Position numbers and translations under genes: made by a program
Assembly: GCA_963779615.1 (NCBI GenBank)
Contig: CAVZZA010000004.1
Location: 160,001 to 224,000 of the forward strand
DNA from: an uncultured Nitrososphaeraceae archaeon
GTDB lineage: Archaea; Thermoproteota; Nitrososphaeria; Nitrososphaerales; Nitrososphaeraceae
Length of the DNA stretch: 64,000 bases
Reading direction: 5' to 3'
Part shown: in pieces, positions 7,801 through 64,000 of the stretch
Layout: the number at the start of each line of letters is the position of its first letter
Position numbering within the stretch: position 1 is the first letter of the stretch
Notes under the pieces: model-generated
The model's database searches: none
What the model was told of the DNA's origin: nothing
What the model saw: the letters and a program-made list of their open reading frames with translations, nothing else

Positions 7801-7823
7801 TTATTTGGTATCAATCATAAGAA

Positions 7824-9236
7824 ATGAGATTATTCAACACCCTTACGAATCAGATCGAAGAAATAAATCTTTTAAAAGGCACAATTAAAGTTTATCTTTG
7901 TGGTGTTACTGTTTACGATGATTGCCATATTGGCCACGCTAGAACGGTCATAGTTTTTGATGTTCTCCGAAGATTTTTTTTATCAAAAAATAAGGATATC
8001 AAATTTATTCAGAACTTTACTGATGTGGATGACAAAATTATAAACAAAGCAGAGGTTGAAGGAACTACCTATGACATAATTTCCGAGCAATACATAAAAA
8101 ATTATTTCAAAGATTTTGATGCATTGAATGTTCTTAGAGCTGATATCTATCCAAAGGCAACAGAACACATTAGTGATATGGTTGATTTTATTAGCGGCTT
8201 AATAAAAAAAAACAATGCATATGTAGGCTCAAACGGAGTTTATTACAAAGTCAAGTCATTTCCTCATTATGGTAAACTATCCAAAAAAACCACTGACTCA
8301 TTAGAATCCGGCGCCCGTGTTGAAATAGATGAGACAAAAGACGATCCACGTGATTTTGCTTTATGGAAATTTTCTCCAAAAGAACCAAGGTGGAAAAGCC
8401 CGTGGGGGTATGGAAGGCCTGGATGGCATATTGAATGCTCTACAATGGCAATAAAATATTTGGGCAATAACTTCGACATACACGGTGGAGGTCAGGACCT
8501 GATATTCCCTCACCATGAGAATGAGATCGCCCAATCAGAAGGATTGTATGATAATTTGTATGCAAAATTGTGGCTCCATGTTGGGATGGTTACCATGGAC
8601 ACAGAAAAAATGTCCAAGTCTACAGGAAATACAATAAAAATCTCTGAAATACTAAAGAAAACAAATCCAAACATAATTCGTCTATTTTGTTTATCTTCTC
8701 ACTATTCAAAGCCCCTAGGTTACTCGGATGAAACCATCATTGAAATACGGAACAAGTGGATGCTGATAGAAAATGCCTATTACGAGTTAAAATACAGAAT
8801 CGACAACAATATAAAATCACCAAATAAAGATTCTCCATATTTTGACCCCTGTGTTTTTAAAGACGAATGCTGCGTTTATTTTGAAGAGTTTGAAAGGTTT
8901 ATAGAGGATGACTTGAATTTTTCCAATGCATTAACATCTTTTTTTAAATTTATCAGCAAAATAAACAACATTTTTTCGACAGGCGAGGCGGATAAGGAGG
9001 TTTTTCTTTTTGCACATGCTCTTTTGGAGAAATTTATGTTTGTTTTGGGCTTAAAAATTGATGCGGTCCCTGAAAAAGAGAAAAAAGAGATTCAAGGATT
9101 GATGGAGAAGCGAAACAGACTCAGAAAAAACAAGGACTATGAAGAATCCGATAGAATAAGAGAAGAACTTTTAAAAAAATTTGATGTAGAATTGATTGAC
9201 CACAAGGGTTTTACTGTTTGGAAAAAGGTTTTGTAA
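7824..9236 (+). CDS. cysS: Cysteine--tRNA ligase
   Basis: CGVTVYD, HIGH, DFALWK, GRPGWHIEC, FPHHENE, KMSKS. Confidence 0.97.
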   Translation: MRLFNTLTNQIEEINLLKGTIKVYLCGVTVYDDCHIGHARTVIVFDVLRRFFLSKNKDIKFIQNFTDVDDKIINKAEVEGTTYDIISEQYIKNYFKDFDALNVLRADIYPKATEHISDMVDFISGLIKKNNAYVGSNGVYYKVKSFPHYGKLSKKTTDSLESGARVEIDETKDDPRDFALWKFSPKEPRWKSPWGYGRPGWHIECSTMAIKYLGNNFDIHGGGQDLIFPHHENEIAQSEGLYDNLYAKLWLHVGMVTMDTEKMSKSTGNTIKISEILKKTNPNIIRLFCLSSHYSKPLGYSDETIIEIRNKWMLIENAYYELKYRIDNNIKSPNKDSPYFDPCVFKDECCVYFEEFERFIEDDLNFSNALTSFFKFISKINNIFSTGEADKEVFLFAHALLEKFMFVLGLKIDAVPEKEKKEIQGLMEKRNRLRKNKDYEESDRIREELLKKFDVELIDHKGFTVWKKVL

Positions 9237-10202: not shown

Positions 10203-10611
10203 ATGACGGAATATTGTGTTGTTAGGAGCAATTGACAAATTAATCAATTGTTTATATCAATTAACTTTAGACAAGATACATACTCAAGGCACAAGATCTG
10301 TATTGGTAAAATCTGCAAATCCTAGCATGCTAGCGATGCCCGCAAACGTTATGGCAGCCACATGATAGCCTTTGATTTTTTTAGGGGTATTGTTTATCCT
10401 GTTATCTGCTGCAACTGCTATTGAATATGCCGTAAAAACAATATCCCTTAAAAACCAAAAGACAGCAATACAACAATTCCAGGCAGAGTTTAACACAGAC
10501 AGTTAGAGCCCGCCTGTCAGAGGTGATTTTGAAATTTCACTCCCCTTTACCAAATGCAACCAGGTAATGGAAAATTGTTCATGGTATCTTTAATTATGTG
10601 AATCTTCAATT

Positions 10612-12398
10612 ATGGTCCATTCCACTAAAATGGTAATGAGTAGGCTCTCTAGAAAGGTAAATGAATTGGGAATAATTTCGGTAATTTTGATTGTGGTTAT
10701 CTCATACGCTTTATTTTCCCATCTTCTACACGACAGAAAACAATATCAAACAGACTATTTGATCAGCAAAAGCAATCCAGTTCAAGTCTACAAAAGCCCT
10801 ATCGGAACACATTAGTTTAGACCTTGGCGCGGTTATGAAAGACTCAAGGCTTGGCTAATTCTGCATATATACAGAATGGACAAGTATCAGATAATAAAAC
10901 CAAAAGATTAATGGAAGAAAGCTATCCCCATATCAACTCAACAGCAGATAGGCTTTTCATTCTAGACAAAAATAACGTTTTAAAAATAAATATGGTCCCA
11001 GATGGACAGAAAAGTTTCATTGGAATGACATATCATTCGTAGATTGGTTGAGGGAAACCAACACAAAACACAAGCCAGTATACTCAAATGGCCATGTTTG
11101 GCTTGATGGCAATTACAGGATAGGAGTGGCCTACCCTATATAAAACAGAGAAACAGGAGAGCACAATGGACTATAGGTGCAGTAATACCTACAGAGAGCT
11201 TCTTTGCCCATTATGGGAATGTTCATGATATCAACTCACAGTTTTTAGTTGTCTTTGATAAGAATGCAACACTGTTGGCTGTAGGTGCAAGCAAGACTTT
11301 GGTAGGAAAGAACTTTTTTGGCGGTGATACGCAGGGGTTTGTCCACCACAATCAAGTTCTAAACGATTTAACACATAGCCTCCTGGATGGCAATTTGGGG
11401 TCTGGGGTTTATGACTACGGCGGAGGTGAACGGTTAAATACGTGTTATCCAATTTTTTTAAATGGTAAACCCACCTTTTTGTCTAGGTAGTGACACCTAC
11501 GGCATCAATCTATTCTCAAGTCAATGAGGTTCTGTCAACACAAAGACGAGACATTTTCACTTCTTGCTGGCACCACTGCTGCGATTGTAGTATTAATAAT
11601 ATTTTTAATGAAATGGACCGGCACATTAGATGATGAAGTAAAAGAAGGACAAGGGAACTGAATGAATCAAACAAGAAACTTGGATTAGCAAATGAGCAGT
11701 TGAAGATCCATGATAAATGCAAGAGGAGTTTATCAACATAGCAAGCCATGAAATAAAGACACCGACCCAAGCCATATTGGGGTTCTCTAATCTATTGCAA
11801 AATCATCCTGAAATAAAAGATGAAATGGTTCAAGGTATATCTGGAAACGTTGATAGGCTTCAAAGACTTACCATTGATATACTGGATGTCACAAAAATAG
11901 AGAGCCAGACATTAAGGGTGAGAAAAGAGCGGTTCAAACTAAATGACTTGGTTTCAAATGTTGTACAAGATTATAGGCGCCAGCTTGAAAAAAAATGCTG
12001 GAGTAAAATTATTGTATAATGACAATGAACATAGCAAAGATAATGATGACCTTGATATCTTTGTTCATGCCGATAGGGAAAGAATATCTCAGGTTATTTC
12101 TAATTTGTTAAGTAATGCTATAAAATTTACAAAACAGGGATTCATATCCATTAATGTAATGTTGAAAAAAGAAAAAGGCAATAACCAGGAGGTTATCGTT
12201 AGCATAAGGGACACTGGGACCGGTATAGACCCCGAAATATTGCCAAGGCTATTCTCAAAATTTGCTACAAAATCAGACATGGGTGGTACCGGATTGGGAT
12301 TGTTTATCTCCAAAAGCATTATGGAGGCTCATGGCGGGGAGGTTTGGGCTGAGAGCAATAAAGATGGGGAGAAGGGAGTATGGTCAAACCATACATGA
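10612..12398 (+). pseudogene. Decayed membrane sensor histidine kinase (extracellular sensor domain, HisKA, HATPase_c)
   Basis: Consecutive fragments in different frames: TM segment, sensor region, H-box EFINIASHEIKTP, N-box NLLSNAIKFT, DTGTGI, GTGLGL; several frameshifts and stops; C-terminus cut off at a transposase remnant. Confidence 0.85.
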
Positions 12399-52887: not shown

Positions 52888-54153
52888 CTATGATTCTTTT
52901 TCCTTCATTATCCCGGATGTGAATAAAGAATGCGCAATGACATTAACCTGCTGTTGATTTTTAGTTTCTGATAGACCTGAAACCAGTTTCTCAACCATGG
53001 TTTTCATCGATGAGAATTGGTCTGTAAGTGATTTTATTTGCTCATCTTTTTCTTGTAATTTTCCTTTGATAAGATATGTTTCTTCTTGACTCTTCAGTTC
53101 GTATTTTTGTAACTCCTTTTGCAGTTTTCCTTGTTTGTCAATCATTAGCAAGTCTGATACTTTCAAATAGTCTTCCAACAGTTCAGTGTCTGTTGGCCGA
53201 TAATACGAGTTGCTAATGCCTATGCTGTGGGACAGCAGTTTTTCAATGTTTATTGGCTTCATGCCTGCTATCTCGGCCCGGGTTTTGAACCATTTCCTTA
53301 AACTGTGTACCGCAGAAAACGGATGTCTTTTCTTTCCGTTTTCCAATTTCTTCCTTAAGCCCTGAGCCCAAATGGCCCTTTCAATCAATCGTTTTATCCC
53401 AGAGGGTGCTAATTTTATGGGTTTTGTAGCAAAGCCCCTTCCTTGGGCCACCCTAGTGTCCCACAAGTCACGCATAAGCCAACTGTTTTCATCTATCAAC
53501 TCGCCAGAATCATCGCGGTATTTCATCCAGTCCTTTAATGCATGGTAGGCCTCTTTGGAGGTGAACGAGTAATATTCCTCATCCTCTTCCGCATAAACAA
53601 TGATTTTGGCTGCAACCACATCCCCATCCTTTTCTATCGGACGTATGTGACCCCATCTCAAATAGTCCCAAGCGCCCAACCGAATTCCGGAAGAGGCCAT
53701 GGTATACACAATGGCCTTGATTCTCCTGTCAGGGTATTCCAGTAGTTTTCGTATCTCATCATTTGTGGGAACCCTGTCATCGGCATAATCCCTTCCCTTC
53801 GGAAGCCCTCTTGTTATCTTTTTCCATGTTATTGGTATGTCGGCCATTTCGCAGAACAGCTTTATGCTTTTTAGATAGTTTCTTACGGTTGCACCCGTTA
53901 TCTCTTTTCTGTCCACCTTTGCCAGGTTAAACTGCATGAACCTTAACAGGCTGTTGAAAACCCACTGGTTTCCGTCTTTTCCCCTTACATCCATAAACAC
54001 TTTGCTCTTTTCCTCAACGGTTGAGCCTTCCAAGCCTAGAAAATCGAAAAACCTTTCCAGCCTCTTCTGGTACTTTTCCCTTGTCACCGGCGACTTTAAC
54101 GCATACAAATACAGTGACCAAAGGTCTGGTTCCACATTATTGTATTTTATCAC
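52888..54153 (-). CDS. Tyrosine recombinase/integrase (intact)
   Basis: SSGIRLG (Arg I), HSLRK (HxxR), LLSH, SYY (catalytic Tyr); coiled-coil C-terminal tail. Confidence 0.93.
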   Translation of the reverse strand: MIKYNNVEPDLWSLYLYALKSPVTREKYQKRLERFFDFLGLEGSTVEEKSKVFMDVRGKDGNQWVFNSLLRFMQFNLAKVDRKEITGATVRNYLKSIKLFCEMADIPITWKKITRGLPKGRDYADDRVPTNDEIRKLLEYPDRRIKAIVYTMASSGIRLGAWDYLRWGHIRPIEKDGDVVAAKIIVYAEEDEEYYSFTSKEAYHALKDWMKYRDDSGELIDENSWLMRDLWDTRVAQGRGFATKPIKLAPSGIKRLIERAIWAQGLRKKLENGKKRHPFSAVHSLRKWFKTRAEIAGMKPINIEKLLSHSIGISNSYYRPTDTELLEDYLKVSDLLMIDKQGKLQKELQKYELKSQEETYLIKGKLQEKDEQIKSLTDQFSSMKTMVEKLVSGLSETKNQQQVNVIAHSLFTSGIMKEKES

Positions 54154-54209
54154 TTTTTTCTTTACACCTTATTTTTAGTAGAACCCAAATAAAAGAACCG
54201 TTATAGTAG

Positions 54210-54284
54210 CGGGCCCAGAGGGATTTGAACCCTCGACCAACTGCTCCGCAGGCAGCCATTCTATCCAAGCTGAACTATGAGCCC
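54210..54284 (-). tRNA. tRNA-Arg(GCG)
   Basis: Reverse complement GGGCTCATAGTTCAGCTTGGATAGAATGGCTGCCTGCGGAGCAGTTGGTCGAGGGTTCAAATCCCTCTGGGCCCG folds as a cloverleaf; anticodon GCG. Confidence 0.95.
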
Positions 54285-54378: not shown

Positions 54379-55365
54379 GTGAATTCATTTCTTGAGGATT
54401 TAAACAACAAAGTTTTGCTTTTTGATGGAGCTATGGGTACGGAAATTCAGCATTATCAGCCCAAACAGTCAGATTATTTGGACAATAAGGAAGGGTTTAA
54501 TGATAGCCTCAATTTCACAAGGCCCGAATGGATTAAAAGCATTCATAAAAAATACATTTCCGCCGGCTCCGACTGCATTGAAACCAACACTTTTGGCAGC
54601 AACAAGCTTAAATTAAATGAATTTGGAGTCGGTGAAAAAACTATTGAATTTAACACTGAGGCTACAAAGCTTGCAAAGGAAGCATGCTCCGAACTAAATA
54701 AAAAAGCATACGTTATTGGTTCGATGGGCCCGTCCGGTTTTTTGCCCAGTTCAAACGATCCTGACCTTGGAAATATATCTTTAGACGAAATAGAGGATGC
54801 GTTTTATTATCAAGCTCAGGGTCTGATAATGGGTGGGTGTGATGCTCTCCTAATAGAAACAGGACAGGACATTTTGGAAATTAAAACAGCGATTGAAGGT
54901 TGCTTTCGGGCAATGGAAAAACTGGAAAAAAAAATTCCGTTGATTTCAAATGTTACGCTGGATCAGTATGGAAAAATGCTTTTAGGAACAAACATACAGG
55001 CAGCGTATGTGACTCTTAGCAATTTGGATATCGATGTATTTGGACTGAACTGCTCCACTGGCCCAGTGGAAATGACTCCTAGCATCCAATGGTTGTGTGA
55101 TCAAAATGAATTACCTATTTTGGTAATGCCAAATGCAGGTATGCCAATAAATGAAAATGGGCTTGCCAAATATTTGATGTCTCCTAGGGAAATAACTGAA
55201 AAATTATCCGAATTCATAAAAAAATATCAAAGGATAAGGCTGGTTGGTGGTTGCTGCGGAACCAACCCTGAGCATATCATGAGTTTACGCAAAATGCTGG
55301 ATGGTGATTCGGCTATCTCGCATTCACATCTATCCGCTGCTGCTGCATCCAACAAGAATGAGTAA
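54379..55365 (+). CDS. metH: B12-dependent methionine synthase, homocysteine-binding subunit
   Basis: DGAMGT, ETNTFG, GLNC and GGCC Zn ligands, PNAG. Confidence 0.92.
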   Translation: MNSFLEDLNNKVLLFDGAMGTEIQHYQPKQSDYLDNKEGFNDSLNFTRPEWIKSIHKKYISAGSDCIETNTFGSNKLKLNEFGVGEKTIEFNTEATKLAKEACSELNKKAYVIGSMGPSGFLPSSNDPDLGNISLDEIEDAFYYQAQGLIMGGCDALLIETGQDILEIKTAIEGCFRAMEKLEKKIPLISNVTLDQYGKMLLGTNIQAAYVTLSNLDIDVFGLNCSTGPVEMTPSIQWLCDQNELPILVMPNAGMPINENGLAKYLMSPREITEKLSEFIKKYQRIRLVGGCCGTNPEHIMSLRKMLDGDSAISHSHLSAAAASNKNE

Positions 55366-55417
55366 GCAAAGAGATCGTTTAAATGATTAAAAAAAAAATA
55401 GTGGATGGTTAGTTTGT

Positions 55418-58012
55418 ATGAAAAAAACCTATAATGATATCCCAAAGGTTTCTTCTGCTTTAACATCTATAGATCTTTTTCAGGAACCTCGGCCGCTTAT
55501 CATCGGCGAAAGGCTAAACTCACAAGGATCAAAAAAAGCGAAAAAAATGGTTTTAGAAGATGATTTTGACGGGTTAATAGACATAGCAAGGGCCCAGGTC
55601 GAAGATGGGGCCCATTGTATAGACGTGTGTGTCGCAACTACCGAGCGATCGGATGAATTAGGGTTTATGCAAAAACTAGTAAAACGGCTCAGTCTCGAAA
55701 TAGAATCCCCTCTGGTAATAGACTCTACGGATACCAAAGTTGTCTATGCAGCCCTAAAGCAAATTCCGGGAATTCCCATAATAAACTCTATTAATCTAGA
55801 AGGTGATGGCAGTAGGTTCTATGATATTGTTCCAGTGATGAGAAAATTTGGGGCACCCGCAGTGTCAATGTGTATTGGCCCTAAAGGAATGGCCAAAACA
55901 AGTGACGATAAACTTCAGGTAGCAAAACTATTGTACGACAAAGCTGCAGATCACAAACTTAAACCCTGGCAATTAATTTTTGATGTCTTAACGTTTACTC
56001 TTGCAACTGGTGAGGCAGAATATGCCGATTCTGCGGTAAATACCCTAAACGGAATAAAGCTTGTTAAAGAGAGTTATCCCAAAGCATTAACAACCCTTGG
56101 ACTAAGCAATGTTAGTTTCGGGCTTCCCGTTTTAGCAAGAAAATTTTTAAACTCCATATTCTTGTACCATGCCTTGAAAAACGGGCTTGACACAGTCATA
56201 ATCAACCCCAAAGACATAATCCCGTACCCCCAGATCAGCGCAACTGAAAAACAATTTTGTGAAGACTTGATATTCAATACAAAAGATAATGCGCTTTCGG
56301 ATCTTATCACATATTTTGATTCAAAACAGTATGATTCAAAATCATCCTCTTCCTCATCCACTCAAAAACAAAACATTATGGAAATAGATAAAAACTGGCC
56401 TGCCAGTAAGAGGTGTTATTTTAGAGTAGTAAACAGGCTAAAGGACGGCATTGAGAATGATGTGGTTTTTGCCATTGCGGATAAAATTCAAGACCCAAAA
56501 GATAAAAAAATAACAGAAATAAAAGACAACGATAGCAATGCTGTCTCCTACAGGCTTGAGTCCACAAAGGAGAATTTGCACAATGCCGCAGTCGAAACAC
56601 TGAATGAGGTTTTACTTCCTGCAATGAAAGAAGTGGGTGACAAGTTCGGGACAGGTGAGTTAATCCTCCCCTTTGTTTTGAAATCAGCTGAATGTATGAA
56701 GGCGGCAGTTTCAGAGCTGGAGAAATTCTTAATTAAACAAGAGGGTGTCAGTAAAGGAAAGCTTGTTTTATGCACAGTTTATGGTGATGTTCACGATATT
56801 GGTAAAAACTTGGTCAAAACAATACTGTCTAATAATGGCTATGAAGTTTTTGACCTCGGGAAACAGGTTCCAATTCCTACAATCGTAAACAAGATAAAAG
56901 AAGTAAAAGCAGATGTTGTGGGCCTGTCTGCGCTGCTTGTATCAACATCCAAACAAATGCAATTATTTGCAGAGTTTGCCCGTGAAAACAATATAAAAAT
57001 ACCAGTCATATGCGGAGGTGCTGCAATAAATAGCGACTATATTAACAGGATTGCAAAAGGGAATGGAGATATCTACAAACCGGGAATTTTTTATTGCAAG
57101 ACTGCTTTTGACGGCCTTAAAATAATGAACAACATAATGTCAGATGAGAAAAGTAAGTTTATTGATGGTTGGATAAACAAACTGGAAAGTTGGAACGAAA
57201 GGCAATACGAAAAAACCACACCCAATGTATCTCAGGACCTCTCTAGCAAGGTTAAACCAGTAATGAATAAACCCATTCCCCCCCTCTTTGATTTCACATA
57301 CAGGTTTTCAAAAAAAGACATTCCGTTGAAGGAGGTGTGGGATTTCTTAAATAAAAAATCACTTTTTGTACTGTCTTGGGGTTTGAGGGGAAAAAGCGCA
57401 TCGAAACTACAAGACGAGTTTAATGATTTGCTGGAAGAGTGGAAGGAAAAAGTGATCAAAGAGGACTTGTTTGAACCGCAGGCGGTTTATGGCTATTTTA
57501 GGTGCAGAAAGGTCGGTAAGAACAACCTTTTGGTAAGGTATATGGACACTGAAAATAAAAAAAACTCTGAAATAACTTTTGAGTTCCCACGGTCATCTTT
57601 AGAAAAACACCTGTGCCTTTCGGACTATTTTGATCCAAATTCTGACGATGTGGTCGCATTTCAATCGGTAACGATGGGAAACAGAGTTGCAGAGGTTGTT
57701 GAGGAATGGAACAAAGACAACCGATACTCAGATGCATACTATTTGCATGGGCTGGCAGTAGAGACGACTGAAGCGCTGGCGGATTGGATTAATCTGCGGA
57801 TTAAAAGGGACTTGAAACTCGAGAAAGGGGGCTTGAGGTACAGCTGGGGGTATCCCAGCTGCCCTGATGTATCCCAGCATTTTTTGGTTTGGAAATTATT
57901 AAACCCCGCGCCAAACGGGATGTCCCTCACTGACAGTGGGCAAATCAATCCCGAATATTCAACGGCTGCGATTGTTGTACATCATCCGGATGCGGAATAT
58001 TTTACCCTATAA
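55418..58012 (+). CDS. metH: B12-dependent methionine synthase, pterin-binding, cobalamin-binding and reactivation domains
   Basis: IIGERLN, NSINLE, GLSNVSFG, GDVHDIGKN, RYSWGYPSCPD. Confidence 0.93.
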   Translation: MKKTYNDIPKVSSALTSIDLFQEPRPLIIGERLNSQGSKKAKKMVLEDDFDGLIDIARAQVEDGAHCIDVCVATTERSDELGFMQKLVKRLSLEIESPLVIDSTDTKVVYAALKQIPGIPIINSINLEGDGSRFYDIVPVMRKFGAPAVSMCIGPKGMAKTSDDKLQVAKLLYDKAADHKLKPWQLIFDVLTFTLATGEAEYADSAVNTLNGIKLVKESYPKALTTLGLSNVSFGLPVLARKFLNSIFLYHALKNGLDTVIINPKDIIPYPQISATEKQFCEDLIFNTKDNALSDLITYFDSKQYDSKSSSSSSTQKQNIMEIDKNWPASKRCYFRVVNRLKDGIENDVVFAIADKIQDPKDKKITEIKDNDSNAVSYRLESTKENLHNAAVETLNEVLLPAMKEVGDKFGTGELILPFVLKSAECMKAAVSELEKFLIKQEGVSKGKLVLCTVYGDVHDIGKNLVKTILSNNGYEVFDLGKQVPIPTIVNKIKEVKADVVGLSALLVSTSKQMQLFAEFARENNIKIPVICGGAAINSDYINRIAKGNGDIYKPGIFYCKTAFDGLKIMNNIMSDEKSKFIDGWINKLESWNERQYEKTTPNVSQDLSSKVKPVMNKPIPPLFDFTYRFSKKDIPLKEVWDFLNKKSLFVLSWGLRGKSASKLQDEFNDLLEEWKEKVIKEDLFEPQAVYGYFRCRKVGKNNLLVRYMDTENKKNSEITFEFPRSSLEKHLCLSDYFDPNSDDVVAFQSVTMGNRVAEVVEEWNKDNRYSDAYYLHGLAVETTEALADWINLRIKRDLKLEKGGLRYSWGYPSCPDVSQHFLVWKLLNPAPNGMSLTDSGQINPEYSTAAIVVHHPDAEYFTL

Positions 58013-58056: not shown

Positions 58057-58266
58057 GTGGGTAGAGTAGAGAAAGGTATAACATGCAGTGTGTTAAAGTG
58101 TGATGAATCTGCTGATAGGTCTATGAGTTTGGCTAAAGCGAAAATGTCACAGGATTTGGATTTTGATAACTCCAAAAAACGCGTGTATTTATGTAAAAAT
58201 CACTACAAAGACTGGAAAAAATCATCCAAAGGCGACAGAGAGGTTGAACGTATGCGTTGGGATTGA
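58057..58266 (+). CDS. Small Zn-finger protein
   Basis: CSVLKC...LCKNH; 69 aa. Confidence 0.75.
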   Translation: MGRVEKGITCSVLKCDESADRSMSLAKAKMSQDLDFDNSKKRVYLCKNHYKDWKKSSKGDREVERMRWD

Positions 58267-58437: not shown

Positions 58438-59871
58438 TTGGCTCTAACTAACGTACCCCATTATTTAAAATTAAAGGAATTAGACTCCAAAAGATGGTTT
58501 GTCCGAATATTAATCCTTAGCGCTGTTTTTACAATACTGATTTTCAAATTTTACACGGCACTCTATGTTATCGATGCAGCCATAGGGGTTTACAGCATTT
58601 TAACATCCTTTGTTTTATTTAACATATTATTCATATCATACTACAAGTATCGGGACCCATATGTGGATGTTCATGATGTCAAAATACCAGAAAGTCACCT
58701 CCCTCTAGTTTCTCTTGTGGTTCCAGTAAAAAATGAGGAAGACATCATCAAAAGGTGTGTCTTATCATGTTTAAATCAGTCATATGAAAAAAAGGAGATA
58801 ATTGTAATTAATGACGGAAGTACCGATGGCACAGGCAAAATCTTAAATGAACTCAAAAGCGAGTACCCAAATACCAATTTCAACATAATTCATTTGGAAA
58901 ATAGTGTTGGGAAAAAAAGGGCGGTTGAAGAGGCCAGCAAGGTCGCAAAGGGCCAGATTTATGCATTTATGGATAGTGATTGTTACATGGCTTTGGATGC
59001 CACAGAAAGGGCAGTAAAGATTTTTCACGCCGATCCCCAACTTGGCGCACTTACTGGCCATGGAAGAGTCATAAACCGCCATGAAGGAGGCCCGTTTGAT
59101 CATTTACTGGAAAAACTGCAGGATGTATATTTAGATGGGGCATGCAGGGCCCAAAAGGGAATGGAAAGTTCCTTTTCCTCAGTTACTTGCTGTTCCGGCT
59201 CATTGAGTTTTTACAGGCGGGAGGCAATTCAGGGTTTCATGCACGACTGGGCACATGACAAGTTTTTAGGGATGGACTTTAAATTTGCGACGGACAGAAG
59301 AATGACCGCCCACGTACTGTCAAACAAACCCCCGCCATTTCTCAAACTTGAATATTCCAAGAATAGATATTTGCATAACAACCCAATCCAAAACCAAAGC
59401 AAGTTTTCTTATAATGAAAATGAACTTGACGGTTTCTGGAAGATTAAATATTCACAGCATATTCGCGTGAATATAGGAGTTCCCTCAACACTGGTTTCTT
59501 TGGTGAAGCAGCAAATCCGGTGGAGAAAAAGCTTTATCAGAAGCCTTTTTTCCACAGGGGGCATTTTTTGGAAAAGGCCGTTTTACGCTGCAATGATATA
59601 CTACCTGCAGACCTCGATGAAATTTATCAGGCCATATATTGTAGCAAAGACTGTTTTTCTAATGCCAATTTATGGAGACTATGTCACCACAATAGTTTGG
59701 TTTTCGGGAATATTGTTTACGGGGATGATTTATGCAGTAGACTTTAGGTTAAGAAACCCAGGCGACAAGAATTGGCTGTACAGACCCCTTTTTACATTGT
59801 TATCCACATTCATTTACACATGGCTGCTAATTTACGCTGCAATTACAATTAAAAAAACAGGGTGGAGATAG
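58438..59871 (+). CDS. Processive membrane GT2 polysaccharide synthase (hyaluronan synthase/NodC/IcaA-like)
   Basis: N- and C-terminal TMs; DGSTD, GKK, MDSD, CCSG, ATDRRMT, QQIRW (QxxRW). Confidence 0.9.
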   Translation: MALTNVPHYLKLKELDSKRWFVRILILSAVFTILIFKFYTALYVIDAAIGVYSILTSFVLFNILFISYYKYRDPYVDVHDVKIPESHLPLVSLVVPVKNEEDIIKRCVLSCLNQSYEKKEIIVINDGSTDGTGKILNELKSEYPNTNFNIIHLENSVGKKRAVEEASKVAKGQIYAFMDSDCYMALDATERAVKIFHADPQLGALTGHGRVINRHEGGPFDHLLEKLQDVYLDGACRAQKGMESSFSSVTCCSGSLSFYRREAIQGFMHDWAHDKFLGMDFKFATDRRMTAHVLSNKPPPFLKLEYSKNRYLHNNPIQNQSKFSYNENELDGFWKIKYSQHIRVNIGVPSTLVSLVKQQIRWRKSFIRSLFSTGGIFWKRPFYAAMIYYLQTSMKFIRPYIVAKTVFLMPIYGDYVTTIVWFSGILFTGMIYAVDFRLRNPGDKNWLYRPLFTLLSTFIYTWLLIYAAITIKKTGWR

Positions 59872-59913
59872 TAAAACTATTGAATTTAAGATTTAAAGGG
59901 ATAAAAAATAGAT

Positions 59914-60126
59914 ATGAAGAGTAAAGGAATTGACGTTATTCTCGTTGCACTTGGAATGATAATAGGGTTTGTTGTAATCCTAATGCATCTGACTGAAATG
60001 TGGCCCTGTTCTATGATCAATGCAGTAAATGGTTCATTTCTAACCATCAACCCCGTCATCAACTCAACAACAGGCTTTATGGATGGAACACATCACTTGT
60101 TAACAAATCTTTTTCAGTGCAGGTAA
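59914..60126 (+). CDS. Small membrane protein downstream of the GT2 synthase
   Basis: One strong TM segment (VILVALGMIIGFVVILM), 70 aa; overlaps the 3' end of the convergent gene. Confidence 0.55.
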   Translation: MKSKGIDVILVALGMIIGFVVILMHLTEMWPCSMINAVNGSFLTINPVINSTTGFMDGTHHLLTNLFQCR

Positions 60127-61078
60127 CCTTATTTTTTTCATCTATGATAATTTCTTCGAAATACCTCAATACTGTTATTTCAGAAACTTGAGGTATCTTT
60201 ATTTTTTTACCTTCAATCATATCAATAATCATTTTTGGAAAGTTCGCCCCGGCCAATGTCGTAAATATGGTGCCACCACCTAATCTTGGATTGATTTCAA
60301 CGAGTTTAAAGGCATTATCCTTATCTTTTTTCATTTGGATGCAACAGGGTCCGATTATTTTCAAAAATTCTGATATCTTACATGATTCTTCAATCAATTC
60401 CTTATCAAGAATGATTTTACCTTTGGTTGATATGCCTCCTCTGGTTTGGAGTCTAACTCGAGGAACAGAAATTATGGGGTTTGAGTCAAAATCCGACAAA
60501 ACATCAATGGTAAACTCTTCACCCGGGAGATACTCTTGATAAATCATCTTGGAATATCTTGAAGAGATATAATCCAATTCAGAAAAATCATTTATTTGAA
60601 TTATATCCCTGCTACCCTTGCCGAACCTGGGTTTGGATATTATTGGAAATTCTGTTATTCTGCTTTTGTCTTCAGTGGTGTATGGTAAATTAAAATTATT
60701 TTTTAGACGCTCAAAGGTTAGAACCTTATCACGGCATACCTCCAAAACGTCCCTATCACTTATTACAGGAATAACCCCAAGGTTTCGTAATTTTTCCTTG
60801 TTTTCACTAAATGGAAATATGTCATATCCTGATGATGGCATTAACACATTTATCTCATATTTGTCAATTATTTTAAACAGAAAATCCAAATAACCTTCAC
60901 CCTCAGCCTCTGGACTTATTTCCCTGTAATCCGACAAGTAAAAACCGGCAGACAATTCATTTGAATCAATAGACAAAATCTTGCCTTTGAAATTGGCAAG
61001 TTTCAGAGATTTGATAGTGTTAATCCCAGCAGGGGCAGAAGCACCAGGAACAAGTACATTAGAAACCTTTCTACGCAA
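60077..61078 (-). CDS. ATP-grasp ligase (small carbamoyl-phosphate-synthase-like type)
   Basis: CRDK, KPRFGKGSR, QEYLPGEEFTID, EINPRLGG. Confidence 0.92.
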   Translation of the reverse strand: MRRKVSNVLVPGASAPAGINTIKSLKLANFKGKILSIDSNELSAGFYLSDYREISPEAEGEGYLDFLFKIIDKYEINVLMPSSGYDIFPFSENKEKLRNLGVIPVISDRDVLEVCRDKVLTFERLKNNFNLPYTTEDKSRITEFPIISKPRFGKGSRDIIQINDFSELDYISSRYSKMIYQEYLPGEEFTIDVLSDFDSNPIISVPRVRLQTRGGISTKGKIILDKELIEESCKISEFLKIIGPCCIQMKKDKDNAFKLVEINPRLGGGTIFTTLAGANFPKMIIDMIEGKKIKIPQVSEITVLRYFEEIIIDEKNKVTCTEKDLLTSDVFHP

Positions 61079-61204
61079 TTACCATCCGCTTAAGCTTAAT
61101 TAATCTATTTATGATATAAATTTTTTTATGTAAAAACACAGGAAATTGTTATGACACAATATGATAAACAATTTAATAAACGATGCTTGTGAATTAAGTG
61201 TGGG

Positions 61205-61837
61205 TTGAACACCAAAGAAGACTACCATATTCACTGTAGTTATAACGATCATTCAGCTCCTGACTTGACAGTTGAGAACGTCATTAAAACGGCTAAAGGA
61301 TTGAATTTACAAACAATCGCGTTTACAGAACACGTTAGGAATACCTCTGATTGGACAGAAAAGTACATCGAGGAGATAAATCAGTTTTTACCCGAAACGG
61401 GTCTAAATGTTTTAAAGGGCTTCGAAGCAAAGATACTCCCTGACGGAAGCATAGATTGCCCCAGTATTTACTTGAATGACAATTATTTTATTGTTGCAAG
61501 TTTTCACACAAAATACCAAGAAAAAGATAAATGGTATAATGCACTATTAAAAGCCATAAACAATGAAAACGTGAATGTAATTGGTCACCTGGAACACGAT
61601 CCCTATTTTTCTCTGGATCATGGTGAAATAAAAAGGATTGGTGAAGAGGTGTTGTCCAATGATAAGATAATTGAAATCAACTCAAAGTACCATAGGCCCA
61701 CACTACAATACCTAAAGATATTTATAGAATTGGGGATAAGTTTTCATTTGGGTAGTGACGCTCATTCTTTGAATGAAATTGGCAATTTTGATAGAATATA
61801 TGATCTTATCAGTTTTATAGAACATAGTAAGGGATAG
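61205..61837 (+). CDS. PHP-domain phosphoesterase
   Basis: DYHIH, AFTEH, GFE, SFH, IGH, EIN, GSDAH metal ligands. Confidence 0.9.
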   Translation: MNTKEDYHIHCSYNDHSAPDLTVENVIKTAKGLNLQTIAFTEHVRNTSDWTEKYIEEINQFLPETGLNVLKGFEAKILPDGSIDCPSIYLNDNYFIVASFHTKYQEKDKWYNALLKAINNENVNVIGHLEHDPYFSLDHGEIKRIGEEVLSNDKIIEINSKYHRPTLQYLKIFIELGISFHLGSDAHSLNEIGNFDRIYDLISFIEHSKG

Positions 61838-61879
61838 TTAAAAAGGGAACTGATACACATAGAGTTCGGATTAGATGAG

Positions 61880-63538
61880 ATGGGGAACATGACTACCACG
61901 GCTATTGATAGGGAAATCAGGTTTAAATCACTGTTTTCTAAATACCTTGATATTGGTAATTCTGAGTTAAACAACTTTATTCTGTCGGTTCCTGCAAAAT
62001 TTGACAATGCTGTAAAAATGTTGAATGAGGTTCCAACTCCTAAAGTTGATGAAAATATTTTTGCTAACAGACGCAATCTCAAGGATGCTGTGTATAATTT
62101 CCATTTAAAGTCACGAACCTTAACTTCTGGCGTAAAAAATCAAATTGATTTATTGGATGTTGAAAGCCTGAAAATTGTAGTTGCAATCCACCAGCCAAAT
62201 TTGTTTGCGTTCGGAGGGGTGTTTAAAAAAATAGTTTTGCTGGAAACGATTTCCAAATACCTAGAAAATTCCCGTGATTCCATATTGCCTTTATTCTTGA
62301 TAATAGACCACGACTTTATGGATGATAGCTGGGTCCATGTTGCAAAGTTACCCAGTGTGAGAAATGCCTCAGGCATTTTGGATTTGAGGTATCCTATGAA
62401 TGATTCAAAAAGATGGAAAATCATATGCAAGACAAATCCACCAACCCACTCACTTGTTAGCTACTGGGAAAACCAAATTTACACATGGATAAGAAAGGAT
62501 AAAACCTTAAGCAGGGAGGATCGAAGGAGACTTTTTACCAACATAGAAAAGTTTTGGAATGTTGTGGAAGATTCTTTATCCGACTCCGGTAACTATTCGG
62601 AGTTTAACTCTCACATAATGTCCAAAATGGTGAACAATGCATGGGGCCATAAAACATTGTTTGTTAACCTATCTGAGCTCTGTCGCACTTTTAAAAAAGG
62701 CTATAATTTTCTAATATCAAACAATGATTCGTATATAGCGTCACTTGAAAGATCAGAAGGGTTCTTTAGAAGCCACGGTATCCACAAAGGCATAAGCTCC
62801 AATTCAAGCAAATATTCACCATTATGGATTCATTGCTCTTGTGGCAGTAAGGGCTATTCGGTTGTAAGCAAAAATCATAACGAAGAAGTTGAACTGGTGG
62901 GTAAATGCATATCCTGCAAAAAGAGACTAAAGTTAAGAGTAGGTTCCCAAAACAATATTGATATACCAGATAACAGTTTAAGTGAAGTTTCACCAAGGGC
63001 CATACCAATACTGCTTTTGTTGTCAAGGGAACTAAACATTTCCGGATACATAACAGGGACTGGCGGTAGCCTTGGGTACACCATGATAGGGAAATGCGTT
63101 TTTGACGATTTAAAAATAAAAATGCCATTGCTATTATTATGGGCATCAAGGGACATCTACAAAGGATTTGCTCAAAAAGAGGCGCTGAAAATACTTGAAG
63201 AGAACAATGTTAAAGACATTTCAACCTTTTTAAAAGATCTAAATAACAAGAATAGCGCATATCGGAACAAAATAAAACCATTGGTTTCCAAAAGGAATTA
63301 TGTATATAAAGATGATGTCAGTTTGGCAGGCATATTGAATGAACTTTTGTATTATAAAAACGAACAGAGGAAATTAAAAAACAAGATCAAAAATGTTGAA
63401 AAATCCAAAAACGCTTTGACTTTAAATGCATGCATAGTGGACTATATAGCCAACTTTGGACTGGAGAGCGTATCAAATAAATGGTCAAACAGCTTGATTA
63501 AAAACAATGATTTTACCTCACCATTAGTATTAGATTAG
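61880..63538 (+). CDS. Uncharacterised protein with BshC-like motif order and a Zn ribbon
   Basis: VVAIHQPNLF..G, PLFLIIDHDF, CSC...CISC, SPRA, YITGTGG..GY, C-terminal coiled coil. Confidence 0.6.
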   Translation: MGNMTTTAIDREIRFKSLFSKYLDIGNSELNNFILSVPAKFDNAVKMLNEVPTPKVDENIFANRRNLKDAVYNFHLKSRTLTSGVKNQIDLLDVESLKIVVAIHQPNLFAFGGVFKKIVLLETISKYLENSRDSILPLFLIIDHDFMDDSWVHVAKLPSVRNASGILDLRYPMNDSKRWKIICKTNPPTHSLVSYWENQIYTWIRKDKTLSREDRRRLFTNIEKFWNVVEDSLSDSGNYSEFNSHIMSKMVNNAWGHKTLFVNLSELCRTFKKGYNFLISNNDSYIASLERSEGFFRSHGIHKGISSNSSKYSPLWIHCSCGSKGYSVVSKNHNEEVELVGKCISCKKRLKLRVGSQNNIDIPDNSLSEVSPRAIPILLLLSRELNISGYITGTGGSLGYTMIGKCVFDDLKIKMPLLLLWASRDIYKGFAQKEALKILEENNVKDISTFLKDLNNKNSAYRNKIKPLVSKRNYVYKDDVSLAGILNELLYYKNEQRKLKNKIKNVEKSKNALTLNACIVDYIANFGLESVSNKWSNSLIKNNDFTSPLVLD

Positions 63539-63554
63539 GTCACTAACAGATAGC

Positions 63555-64000
63555 ATGAAAAAAATCAATGCATTAGTCACATCGGTTGGAGGCATAGTCG
63601 CACAAGGAATAATTAAATCATTAAAATTTCATAACAACTACTCAGAAAACAAAGCCTATGCCTATAACATTTATGGCACTGACATTGCTTATGACTCGTC
63701 TGGGCTGTATAGAGTAGACAAGTTCTCGCTTGTAGGTAAACCTGAAAGCGAGGGATACATCGAGTCCATAATTAGCATATGCAACAACAATGACATCGAT
63801 ATAGTCTTTATTGGCTCAGATGCTGAATTGTCCAAATTAGGCAATAATCAGAAACAAATTGAAAGCAACACCCATGCAAAAATATTGACAAATCCCTTTG
63901 ATGTGATAGAAAGGTGCAGAGACAAACACAAGACATATGAATTTCTAAAGGAAAACAATCTCAACTACATTCCCTCCTGTTTGGCGGAAGACTCTGAAGA
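63555..64000 (+). CDS. Second ATP-grasp ligase (partial, runs off the window)
   Basis: My translation MKKINALVTSVGGIVAQGIIKSL...GTD...GLY...GSDAEL...CRDKHKTYEFL is paralogous to 60077-61078. Confidence 0.85.
   Translation, partial: MKKINALVTSVGGIVAQGIIKSLKFHNNYSENKAYAYNIYGTDIAYDSSGLYRVDKFSLVGKPESEGYIESIISICNNNDIDIVFIGSDAELSKLGNNQKQIESNTHAKILTNPFDVIERCRDKHKTYEFLKENNLNYIPSCLAEDSE

Follow-up and report, generated by a model that had tools for sequence, protein, structure and literature searches.

The window analysed here, a 64,000-nucleotide stretch of an archaeal genome, ends in a group of genes encoding a hyaluronan-synthase-like glycosyltransferase, ATP-grasp ligases, a phosphoesterase and a BshC-like protein, which raises the question of what these enzymes make together. 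The host genome (92.5% complete) belongs to Candidatus Nitrosocosmicus, a soil ammonia-oxidising archaeon. The original prediction proposed a pathway for an amino-sugar polymer or glycoconjugate decorated with amino acids or acyl groups, and did not recognise the combination as a described pathway. The literature likewise yielded no described pathway with such a combination. We favour, with slightly better than even confidence, the reading that a synthase makes an amino-sugar glycan which undergoes de-N-acetylation and amidation.

Layout of the gene block

All six predicted open reading frames were found in place, with their domains confirmed. On the plus strand, the gene of GT2 (58438..59871, 477 aa), a membrane-embedded family-2 glycosyltransferase with class I hyaluronan synthase (HAS) architecture, is directly followed by that of TM70 (59914..60126, plus strand, 70 aa), a small single-pass membrane protein. 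AG1 (60077..61078, minus strand, 333 aa), a PRK12767-like ATP-grasp ligase, is transcribed divergently from PHP (61205..61837, plus strand, 210 aa), a PHP-family metal-dependent phosphoesterase, and the two genes lie 126 nt apart, in keeping with the predicted divergence. The BshC-like protein (BshCL; 61880..63538, plus strand, 552 aa) and the second ATP-grasp ligase (AG2; 63555..64000, plus strand) complete the part inside the window, which holds the N-terminal 148 aa of AG2. The cluster was expected to run off the window and extends for another ~2.3 kb in the genome. This extension completes the AG2 gene (in full G000:C4:223555-224634, plus strand, 359 aa) and adds the genes of a truncated sugar dehydrogenase (DH; C4:225325-226287, minus strand) and a PIG-L deacetylase (C4:224651-225298, minus strand), a deacetylase being what the downstream sequence was to be read for. 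Thus, the Nitrosocosmicus cluster is a single block in which GT2-TM70 converges on AG1 and PHP-BshCL-AG2 converges on PIG-L-DH.

Upstream of GT2, orf69 (58057..58266, plus strand) encodes a small conserved Cys/His-rich protein with no match in Pfam or NCBIfam. It shows 78-90% identity inside the genus and 60-66% in other genera, and occurs in 31 of the 80 BshCL-centred loci, where it flanks the cluster every time on varying sides. Its membership of the cluster is uncertain, and it is possibly a regulator.

Synthase, ligases and tailoring enzymes

GT2 matches Pfam PF00535 at 105 bits (cut-off 23.3). The full D, DxD, D, QxxRW set ascribed to it is present as INDGSTD, DSD, TDR and QQIRW, and an alignment of 32 homologues shows no change at D126, D179-S-D181, D286-R287 or Q358-Q-x-R-W362. 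Among the NCBIfam models, PgaC/IcaA (119.6 bits, cut-off 422.3) and NodC (98.5 bits, cut-off 550) come nearest, both with scores far under the cut-off. The closest solved sequence is that of Xenopus HAS1 (8smm, E 2.2e-14), with an alignment covering the TDR region, the QQIRWRKSF region and the C-terminal transmembrane region. In structural comparisons of the AF2 model (pLDDT 85.5), hyaluronan synthases took all of Foldseek ranks 1-13, with BcsA and chitin synthases behind them. The TM scores to hyaluronan synthases are ~0.7 for most (0.57-0.71, E down to 2.7e-20) at 16-22% identity, and four strong hydrophobic segments are predicted. The modelled fold of GT2 is of the class I hyaluronan synthase type. 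TM70, with one predicted transmembrane helix in line with the original prediction, is kept across genera with D7, W30-P31-C32 and H60 invariant in 10 sequences, and is found in 18/80 BshCL-centred loci.

AG1 and AG2 both consist of ATP-grasp_3 and PylC-like_N domains and share 28% identity (E 3e-29), consistent with the proposed paralogy. The Pfam matches of AG1 are ATPgrasp_Ter (85 bits) and ATP-grasp_3 (63 bits), and its top PDB match, 2pn1, has no assigned function. Full-length AG2 exceeds the NF009402 (PRK12767.1-1) cut-off of 218 bits, scoring 300.5, whereas AG1 stays below it at 177.8 bits. PHP matches PF02811 (35.8 bits, cut-off 26.4) and has an HxH motif at its N terminus in the sequence. 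Membership of the HisJ family was rejected (34.8 vs. 90.2).

BshCL reaches only a sub-threshold match to Pfam BshC (PF10079; 22 bits vs. 27). However, Foldseek with its AF2 model (pLDDT 94.4) retrieved BshC first (4wbd, E 9.2e-19, TM 0.62), then class I LysRS (1irx, E 1.3e-10) and further class I synthetases, and the family profile finds 4wbd at E 3.9e-6. An alignment of 47 sequences shows full conservation of H104, Q105 and the cysteines C319, C321, C343 and C346 of a four-Cys insertion, and near-full conservation of P106 and N107. BshCL has no match to TIGR03998 at E <= 0.01, and its relatives reach at most 39.5 bits (cut-off 265.8), so it was rejected as a BshC equivalog. Thus, the predicted BshC likeness stands as remote homology with a modelled class I tRNA-synthetase fold, but not as BshC equivalog status.

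The PIG-L protein is the product of the sole PIG-L gene in the genome. It scores 65.3 bits on PF02585 (cut-off 28.2), and its top NCBIfam model is BshB1 (92.8 vs. a cut-off of 182.5). DH has the N-terminal and central domains of a sugar 6-dehydrogenase and lacks the UDP-binding domain. DH also exists in more than one copy, and one that is 98.4% identical sits amid unrelated cobalamin and SAM-synthetase genes. The missing domain and the extra copies both make its tie to the cluster weaker.

Modules in related genomes

Across Nitrososphaeraceae the genes form a modular biosynthetic cluster of three modules, GT2-AG1-PHP, DH-deacetylase and BshCL-AG2, which are reshuffled and repeatedly re-associated, and which in Nitrosocosmicus are fused into one block. 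The full array is present in all eight Nitrosocosmicus loci examined. The 24 closest BshCL loci carry GT2 in 20 and AG2 in 23, with the absences on short contigs, and AG2 accompanies BshCL in 71/80 loci overall. AG1-PHP adjoins GT2 in eight genera, AG1 and PHP occur in 31/32 GT2-bearing loci, and AG1 adjoins PHP wherever one locus carries both. In genera g66 and g70, BshCL-AG2 directly adjoins GT2 in an altered gene order, and in G196 GT2 is adjoined by DH and PIG-L. Thus, the GT2 and ligase genes, whose separation in other genomes would have spoken against a common pathway, stay clustered across genera despite rearrangement. The phyletic profiles of BshCL and AG2 coincide in 79 of the 81 family genomes, with the two together in 50 and both absent in 29, and BshCL occurs alone in 2; these genomes are relatives and hence non-independent samples. 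Genera g19 and g22 retain GT2, AG1-PHP and PIG-L, but none of their 14 genomes yielded BshCL-AG2, and solitary GT2 orthologues occur in g59, g63, g68 and g69.

Parts are also exchanged. Triads of DH, a CE4 deacetylase and a GT2 homologue, in which CE4 substitutes for PIG-L, lie at two places in G204 and at one in G027, the latter together with GlmS. In the Nitrososphaera-type loci (7/80, plus G115 and G120), BshCL-PIG-L and AG2 flank a PelF-like GT4 (DUF3492) in place of GT2, an epimerase and a polytopic membrane protein, and AG2 is divergent from a calcineurin-like phosphoesterase that takes the place of PHP, mirroring AG1-PHP. PIG-L directly adjoins BshCL in 9/10 examined loci of a distantly related archaeal BshCL subfamily, near genes of archaeal GlmU, an epimerase, an acetyltransferase and a GT4. 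RNA-library contigs (four soil libraries from four studies) span every cluster gene at 95-99% identity, which is weak evidence, as DNA can occur in such libraries.

Candidate product and competing explanations

The placement of GT2 homologues beside GlmS, deacetylases and DH, and of BshCL and ATP-grasp homologues beside polysaccharide machinery, favours a decorated amino-sugar glycan. This part of the original prediction gained support, but the single pathway that it implied is qualified by the modularity of the cluster and by the failure to find BshCL-AG2 in the 14 genomes of g19 and g22. GT2 would polymerise a putative HexNAc-containing chain, possibly of HexNAc and uronic acid, at the membrane and export it. 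The deacetylase would free sugar amines and the truncated 6-dehydrogenase would supply or create carboxylates. BshCL may activate an amino acid by adenylation and load it onto the freed amine, consistent with its fold and its partnership with PIG-L, and AG1 and AG2 may, by analogy, form further amide bonds. The end product would be a cell-surface amino-sugar glycan bearing amino acids or amines. The decorating enzymes all lack predicted transmembrane or signal-like segments and are therefore probably cytoplasmic. As a HAS-type synthase exports its chain during synthesis, decoration would fall on precursors or the chain end, which counts against a polymer and for which the proposed scheme gives no account. 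The PIG-L enzymes characterised so far are not known to act on polymers, their substrates being GlcNAc in small glycosides or in lipid-linked form, and this also counts against a polymer.

Known glycan systems resemble the cluster in part. Class I HAS systems, such as streptococcal hasA-hasB-hasC and the chlorovirus HAS with UDP-glucose dehydrogenase and GFAT, share the architecture and motifs of GT2, which recurs beside a UGDH-family dehydrogenase and, in G027, beside GlmS, the GFAT equivalent. However, the identity of GT2 to HAS is low, the archaeal DH lacks the UDP-binding domain, and we know of no deacetylase or ligases in HAS systems. PNAG (IcaADBC or PgaABCD) and Nod factor (NodC-NodB-NodA) synthesis pair a GT2 HexNAc synthase with a deacetylase, as the archaeal cluster does. 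IcaD or PgaD is a small membrane protein after the synthase, as is TM70, with a putative functional tie, and in Nod factor the freed amine is then N-acylated, the logic proposed here. GT2 differs in failing the equivalog cut-offs of these synthases, the deacetylase is of PIG-L type (CE4 in relatives), and acylation would use ATP-dependent ligases rather than the NodA acyltransferase. The PelF-like DUF3492 GT4, epimerase and polytopic membrane protein of the Nitrososphaera-type loci and G120 recall Pel, for which we know of no amino acid decoration. However, no PelA, PelD, PelE or PelG family matches were obtained, and the arrangement is absent from the cluster of the window. In the C. jejuni HS:2 capsule, the available text of PMC11800379 describes how the C-terminal ATP-grasp amidoligase of Cj1438 amidates the GlcA carboxylate with a phosphorylated amine, after which the phosphatase Cj1435 removes the phosphate. 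By analogy with such Campylobacter glucuronamide capsules, AG1 may take a phosphorylated amine from which PHP would then strip the phosphate, and the divergence of ATP-grasp genes from PHP, or from the calcineurin-like phosphoesterase in relatives, is similar. However, the Campylobacter pair comprises a TupA-like ATP-grasp (Cj1438C) and a HAD phosphatase (Cj1435), whereas AG1 and AG2 are PRK12767-like with no TupA-type Pfam match. Pseudomurein and murein likewise combine an amino-sugar glycan with ATP-dependent amide ligases, and the thick Nitrosocosmicus wall lacks an S-layer (PMC11559005). However, the pseudomurein ATP-grasp model NF053643 scores only 41.7 and 51.9 bits (cut-off 500), and the Pfam/NCBIfam domain search found neither a Mur-type ligase nor a MraY-type gene in the cluster. 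The available text of PMC11559005 reports no S-layer genes in Nitrosocosmicus and a wall of ~18 nm with unresolved composition, for which its authors proposed an amino-sugar glycocalyx. A decorated amino-sugar surface polymer, if true, may bear on this uncharacterised cell wall, or might serve in a biofilm matrix as originally suggested.

The main competing explanation, which we regard as unlikely, assigns to the BshCL-PIG-L(-AG2) core the synthesis of a soluble small molecule based on glucosamine, for instance a thiol resembling bacillithiol or mycothiol, or a solute. GlcNAc-X would come from a glycosyltransferase, PIG-L would deacetylate it, BshCL would attach cysteine or a different amino acid, and the ATP-grasps would extend it; GT2 would be the GlcNAc-X synthase or a neighbour with a separate role. 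This mirrors the BshA-BshB-BshC design in the nearest structure of BshCL and the top model of PIG-L, and agrees with the predicted cytoplasmic location of every enzyme but GT2, the single PIG-L gene, and the distant BshCL-PIG-L pairs with their acetyltransferase and with GT4s that score best on BshA, sub-threshold (107 and 126 bits vs. 273.7). However, the incomplete genome yielded no BshA-like GT4 at E <= 1e-10 and no MshC above cut-off, and the bacillithiol (BSH) equivalog cut-offs are missed by BshCL, by PIG-L and by the distant GT4s alike. The BshCL family is also set apart by its HQPN motif, its four-Cys insertion and the ATP-grasp ligase gene that follows its own in Nitrososphaeraceae. 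Moreover, the only glycosyltransferase of the cluster has a modelled HAS-type channel architecture, and the modules recur by polymer-type machinery (PelF-like GT4, CE4 deacetylases, GlmS). According to 10.1101/2025.07.06.663066 and PMC7278568, neither a complete BSH pathway nor BSH itself has been found in archaea.

A lipid-linked product, a glucosaminyl glycolipid, GPI-like anchor or dolichol-linked glycan precursor, appears less probable still. GT2 would add GlcNAc to a membrane lipid, PIG-L would deacetylate it on the cytoplasmic face, like its GPI-pathway counterpart, and the ligases would acylate the amine, an arrangement that would fit soluble enzymes with a membrane GT2. PIG-L is named after GlcNAc-phosphatidylinositol deacetylation (Pfam description), and an AglJ-like dolichyl-phosphate hexose transferase lies beside PIG-L-BshCL in one distant locus. 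The archaetidylinositol-phosphate synthase gene that adjoins the cluster in g1, g20, g59, g66 and g69 belongs, however, to a syntenic housekeeping block (S26e, NAD kinase, CTP synthase) and does not adjoin it in G011, g19 and g22. The top structural matches of GT2 are processive synthases rather than lipid monoglycosyltransferases, and PIG-L is replaced in some triads by CE4 deacetylases, whose typical substrates are oligo- and polysaccharides. We give the least credence to two or three unrelated units juxtaposed and kept in one family through inherited synteny. Part of the synteny may be plain inheritance: every module occurs alone in certain genera, DH is found in unrelated contexts too, and the informative genomes all come from one order, distant BshCL-PIG-L pairs excepted. 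However, the modules re-join in other orders and orientations (g66 and g70 vs. g1) and with non-homologous deacetylase, phosphoesterase and glycosyltransferase substitutes, indicating that inheritance alone is an insufficient explanation.

Layout and genomic setting of the cluster

The source genome comprises 3.17 Mb in five contigs, with the window at G000:C4:160001-224000, and the source names on near-identical and related BshC-like proteins place it in Candidatus Nitrosocosmicus. All open reading frames of the original prediction were recovered at their proposed coordinates, and Pfam and NCBIfam confirmed their domains. The hyaluronan-synthase-like glycosyltransferase (GT2; 58438-59871, plus strand, 477 aa) is followed by a 70-aa membrane protein (TM70; 59914-60126, plus strand), the first ATP-grasp ligase (AG1; 60077-61078, minus strand), a PHP-domain protein (PHP; 61205-61837, plus strand), the 552-aa BshC-like protein (BshCL; 61880-63538, plus strand) and the second ATP-grasp ligase (AG2; plus strand), which starts at 63555 and leaves the window, the whole protein having 359 aa. 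The original prediction had looked to the downstream sequence for a deacetylase, and a PIG-L deacetylase (215 aa) is present just past AG2, convergent with it and followed by a truncated sugar dehydrogenase (DH; 320 aa) of the UDP-glucose/GDP-mannose dehydrogenase family. Past DH lies a housekeeping block of archaetidylinositol-phosphate synthase, ribosomal protein S26e, NAD kinase and CTP synthase genes. The archaetidylinositol-phosphate synthase (G000:C4:226425-227570; 10425-11570 in the fetched locus L001, which covers C4:216001-236000 and is converted to window coordinates by adding 56000) was considered as a cluster member and dropped, as it belongs to this synteny block and its adjacency is inconstant. 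Its C-terminal low-complexity tail of ~170 aa is rich in Ser, Thr, Pro and Lys and differs in length between species.

The gene spacing suggests four transcription units: GT2-TM70 and PHP-BshCL-AG2 running forward, AG1 and PIG-L-DH running in reverse. A scan for sigma-70-like promoters, which is ill-suited to archaea, returned 19 sites vs. 30.2 +/- 6.0 in shuffled sequences. Four soil RNA libraries from four studies hold contigs on every cluster gene at 95-99% identity, some of which cross the PHP/BshCL and BshCL/AG2 junctions. These contigs record the occurrence of the sequences, with DNA possibly present and transcription levels and operons not readable from them, and weakly suggest that the cluster genes are expressed.

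The upstream genes have no relation to the cluster; they encode a methionine synthase split in two and a tyrosine recombinase. The methionine synthase (54379-58012) is divided into one ORF with the homocysteine S-methyltransferase domain (328 aa) and another with the pterin-binding, B12-binding and activation domains (864 aa), a split kept across the genus. The tyrosine recombinase/integrase gene (52888-54153, minus strand) directly adjoins a tRNA-Arg(GCG) gene (54209-54284, minus strand), and this pair (52888-54284) possibly lies at the border of an integrated element on the upstream side of the cluster. Positions 7812-8756 match the MshC/CysRS family with 260 bits, below the cut-off, and the matched stretch contains one in-frame TAA.

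Folds and family assignments of the encoded proteins

GT2 carries a GT-A domain (PF00535, 105 bits) with the D, DxD, catalytic D and QxxRW motifs all present, as the original prediction had claimed. The corresponding residues D126, D179-S-D181, D286-R287 and Q358-Q-x-R-W362 do not vary among 32 sequences and align to the motifs of HAS1. Among solved structures, Xenopus hyaluronan synthase 1 is the closest in sequence; the two proteins align through the catalytic TDR region, along the QQIRWRKSF helix and over the membrane region at the C-terminus. An AlphaFold (AF2) model of GT2 from 32 homologues has a pLDDT of 85.5. Foldseek comparisons of the model placed hyaluronan synthases at ranks 1-13 (TM mostly ~0.7, range 0.57-0.71), followed by BcsA/cellulose and chitin synthases. 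The predicted structure, with TM helices against the GT domain and a channel architecture, resembles that of processive membrane synthases of the HAS/chitin synthase/NodC/BcsA type. GT2 scored well below the equivalog cut-offs (curated NCBIfam thresholds) for PgaC/IcaA (TIGR03937, 119.6 vs. 422.3) and NodC (TIGR04242, 98.5 vs. 550), and neither assignment was kept. TM70 is conserved, crosses the membrane once and carries a WPC motif that does not vary; a complex test of GT2 with TM70 gave a score of 0.00 against a mark of 0.32, which is neutral on a possible IcaD/PgaD-like partnership. Predicted TM segments are absent from all the soluble enzymes of the cluster.

The label "BshC-like" in the original prediction holds for the fold of BshCL, whereas the curated BshC cut-offs were failed. 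BshCL scored 22 bits vs. 27 with PF10079 and gave no TIGR03998/NCBIfam match at E <= 0.01, so that it was rejected as a BshC equivalog; its family relatives reach at most 39.5 bits with the BshC model, the cut-off being 265.8. The single sequence gave no matches in the PDB, and the relationship is seen by family profile and fold search. A profile of 47 family members matches the BshC structure 4wbd with an E value of 3.9e-6, and the BshCL model (pLDDT 94.4) has 4wbd as its first Foldseek match (E 9.2e-19, TM 0.62), followed by class I lysyl-tRNA synthetase and other class I synthetases. Both searches support for BshCL the BshC fold, in which a Rossmann-like core is joined to a C-terminal helical region. 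The first Rossmann strand is followed by an HQPN motif, of which HQ is invariant and PN nearly so, and a beta-hairpin insertion contains four cysteines that are invariant. The family is small: at E <= 0.001, a search of 1.84 billion proteins gave 336 representative clusters. Nor does BshCL co-occur with BshA and BshB: the source genome gave no BshA-family match at E <= 1e-10, and its PIG-L protein stays below the BshB1 cut-off. The activity of BshC itself is not known to have been reconstituted in biochemical assays.

AG1 and AG2 are 28% identical. AG2 exceeds the cut-off of NF009402 (PRK12767.1-1, "carbamoyl phosphate synthase-like" ATP-grasp; 300.5 bits vs. 218), a family without an assigned function, and AG1 stays below it (177.8 bits vs. 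218). The structure nearest to both is 2pn1, an uncharacterised structural-genomics protein. Membership of the pseudomurein ATP-grasp ligase type (NF053643) was rejected, as AG1 scores 41.7 bits and AG2 51.9 bits against a cut-off of 500. PHP matches the general PHP domain (35.8 bits vs. 26.4) and falls short of the HisJ-type histidinol phosphatase family (TIGR01856, 34.8 bits vs. 90.2). PIG-L matches PF02585 (65.3 bits vs. 28.2) and displays the motifs AHPDD and HQDH, which we take to be the metal-binding motifs of PIG-L/LmbE deacetylases; among the NCBIfam models it comes closest to BshB1, below the cut-off (92.8 bits vs. 182.5).

DH consists of the NAD-binding N-terminal and the central domains and is without the C-terminal nucleotide-sugar-binding domain, and it was rejected as a three-domain NDP-sugar 6-dehydrogenase (UGDH/WecC, TIGR03026; 143.3 bits vs. 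189.8). PF03720 occurs in the source genome in another gene only, and the genome has one full-length member of the DH family elsewhere. DH retains a GGHCLPKD motif, presumably the catalytic-Cys motif. The gene (G000:C4:225325-226287) has a second copy at G000:C5:758944-759825, among cobalamin, SAM-synthetase and aIF2-alpha genes that form an unrelated neighbourhood. The copies are 98.4% identical over 867 nt with the identity ending at the gene borders, which looks like gene conversion or a recent duplication. Many relatives have the DH family in several copies, one genome giving as many as 13 matches, and the family carries a variable Ser/Thr-rich insert.

Distribution and rearrangement among relatives

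The cluster genes were searched for in 81 Nitrososphaeraceae genomes of 18 genera, the source genome included. These genomes are relatives and not independent samples, so the counts are given without statistics; the tallies take in two genomes flagged as unpublished (G165 and G202), and one further search takes in G128, but no claim is based on these alone. GT2 (E <= 1e-40) occurs in 73/81 genomes and 15/18 genera, BshCL in 52 genomes and AG2 (E <= 1e-60) in 50, both in 15 genera, PIG-L in 68 genomes and 17 genera, and the truncated DH, often multi-copy, in 71 genomes and 17 genera. The presence of BshCL and AG2 is concordant in 79 of the 81 genomes, the two discordant ones being 75-76% complete. 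Co-occurrence of the synthase and ligase genes in other genomes, on which the original prediction depended, was found for the whole array in 8/8 Nitrosocosmicus loci fetched. However, neither BshCL nor AG2 was found in the seven genomes of genus g19 or the seven of g22, which keep GT2-AG1-PHP together and PIG-L adjoining a dehydrogenase. Because these two genera are without it, the BshCL-AG2 step appears to be optional.

The order of the genes varies between genera. It is GT2-(TM70)-AG1-PHP-BshCL in g1, g20, g60 and g61, whereas AG2-BshCL is divergent from GT2-(TM70)-AG1-PHP in g66 and g70. AG1-PHP-BshCL-AG2-PIG-L-DH forms a block that does not include GT2 in g68 and g59, and just BshCL-AG2-PIG-L-DH is present in g69 and one g20 locus. 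In G196, DH-PIG-L is followed by a discoidin-domain protein and then GT2. A BshCL-centred set of 80 species-level loci, kept from 183 confirmed, all of Nitrososphaeraceae type and many cut by contig ends, contains AG2 in 71, PHP in 61, AG1 in 56, PIG-L in 48 and GT2 in 32; any synthase-like glycosyltransferase is found in 40. Nitrososphaera-type loci (7/80, plus G115 and, from a third family, G120) have PIG-L-BshCL and AG2 on either side of a PelF-like GT4 (DUF3492), a polytopic membrane protein and an NAD-dependent epimerase; in these loci AG2 is divergently paired with a calcineurin-like phosphoesterase, as AG1 is with PHP. A triad of DH, CE4 polysaccharide deacetylase and GT2 homologue occurs in G204 and in G027, of another family, where GlmS adjoins it. 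The G204 triad is tandemly duplicated (L049, G204:C1:2002000-2021900). The rearrangements and non-homologous substitutions are the strongest evidence for a functional link between the genes.

Metagenome contigs were also scanned with a distant BshCL subfamily, whose members are 17-30% identical to one another, and 10 of the 80 returned loci were examined. PIG-L directly adjoins the distant BshCL in 9/10 of these, with an epimerase and a GT4 nearby. One locus carries an archaeal GlmU (370 bits vs. 292), the only taxonomic clue for the distant contigs, with a hexapeptide acetyltransferase, a radical SAM protein and a GT4 whose best match is BshA, below the threshold; another carries an AglJ-like GT2. 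The adjacency of PIG-L in the distant loci thus indicates that the BshCL-PIG-L pair is the ancient core, found throughout in nucleotide-sugar or glycan surroundings.

Proposed pathway and alternative products

The cluster is a real, conserved and probably expressed feature, and its best reading is a modular route to an amino-sugar glycan that is de-N-acetylated and carries amide decorations, of which we infer the product and all substrates. On this reading it is a variant of synthase-dependent polysaccharide systems, unusual for its BshC relative of tRNA-synthetase fold, its pair of ATP-grasp ligases and its paired phosphoesterases. The observed part of the mechanism comprises the folds, motifs, conserved catalytic residues, persistent clustering and substitutions. 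GT2 would make a HexNAc-containing chain, the deacetylase would release amines and DH would supply carboxylates. BshCL might adenylate an amino acid in the style of class I synthetase folds and pass it to the sugar amine, and the ATP-grasp ligases could form further amides. AG1-PHP possibly acts like the Campylobacter jejuni pair Cj1438/Cj1435, for which a published account (PMC11800379) describes amidation of glucuronate with serinol phosphate or ethanolamine phosphate and subsequent removal of the phosphate. Two points are difficult for this scheme: the decorating enzymes are probably cytoplasmic whereas a HAS-type synthase exports its chain during growth, and DH would have to bind its substrate without a UDP-binding domain.

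The cytoplasmic location would fit a small molecule resembling bacillithiol or mycothiol, as would the BshCL-PIG-L core. However, the source genome has neither a BshA-like GT4 (E <= 1e-10) nor an MshC above cut-off, on which grounds a canonical pathway for either thiol was rejected. The equivalog cut-offs all failed and the modules recur adjoining polymer machinery, leaving such a product unlikely. A 2025 preprint (10.1101/2025.07.06.663066) reports no archaeon with a complete BSH pathway. A lipid-linked product would reconcile the soluble enzymes with the membrane-bound GT2, and the neighbouring inositol-phosphate synthase hints at a lipid; that gene, however, is an inconstant neighbour from the housekeeping block, and we regard this product as improbable. 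Plain inherited synteny, without a single pathway, leaves the reordered and substituted versions unexplained and seems very unlikely.

Nitrosocosmicus is an abundant ammonia oxidiser of soil and wastewater, and the amide-decorated glycan cluster offers testable candidate genes for its envelope or matrix. A 2024 comparative study (PMC11559005) describes all Nitrosocosmicus as without S-layer genes, and its cryo-tomograms show no S-layer and a thick wall of ~18 nm, with hair-like filaments; the authors call the composition of the wall unknown. A more far-reaching and improbable proposal is that the cluster builds a wall or glycocalyx polymer replacing the S-layer, a hyaluronan- or chitin-like chain whose amines and uronate carboxyls would be amidated, perhaps bridged, with amino acids by BshCL and the two ATP-grasp ligases. 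If true, archaea would have evolved a peptide-decorated glycan wall independently, and the BshC superfamily would gain its first role in polymer modification. No paper describing this gene combination was found in a search that covered few subscription journals, and the supplementary Data File S1 of PMC11559005 may already list some of the cluster genes.

The analysis defines a BshC-related family of tRNA-synthetase fold that is linked, in glycan contexts, to PIG-L deacetylases and ATP-grasp ligases, a setting that could help explain the function of BshC-type enzymes. If the proposed chemistry holds, ATP-dependent amino-acid decoration of a synthase-made polysaccharide would join archaeal cell-surface biology, and new amide-forming enzymes for glycan engineering would be possible. 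In other genera, homologous clusters have large proteins beside them (L024 4271-6196, L032 14257-16557 and L048 9768-11159) that contain discoidin (F5/8 type C), Ig-like or laminin-G domains and may be carbohydrate-binding surface proteins.
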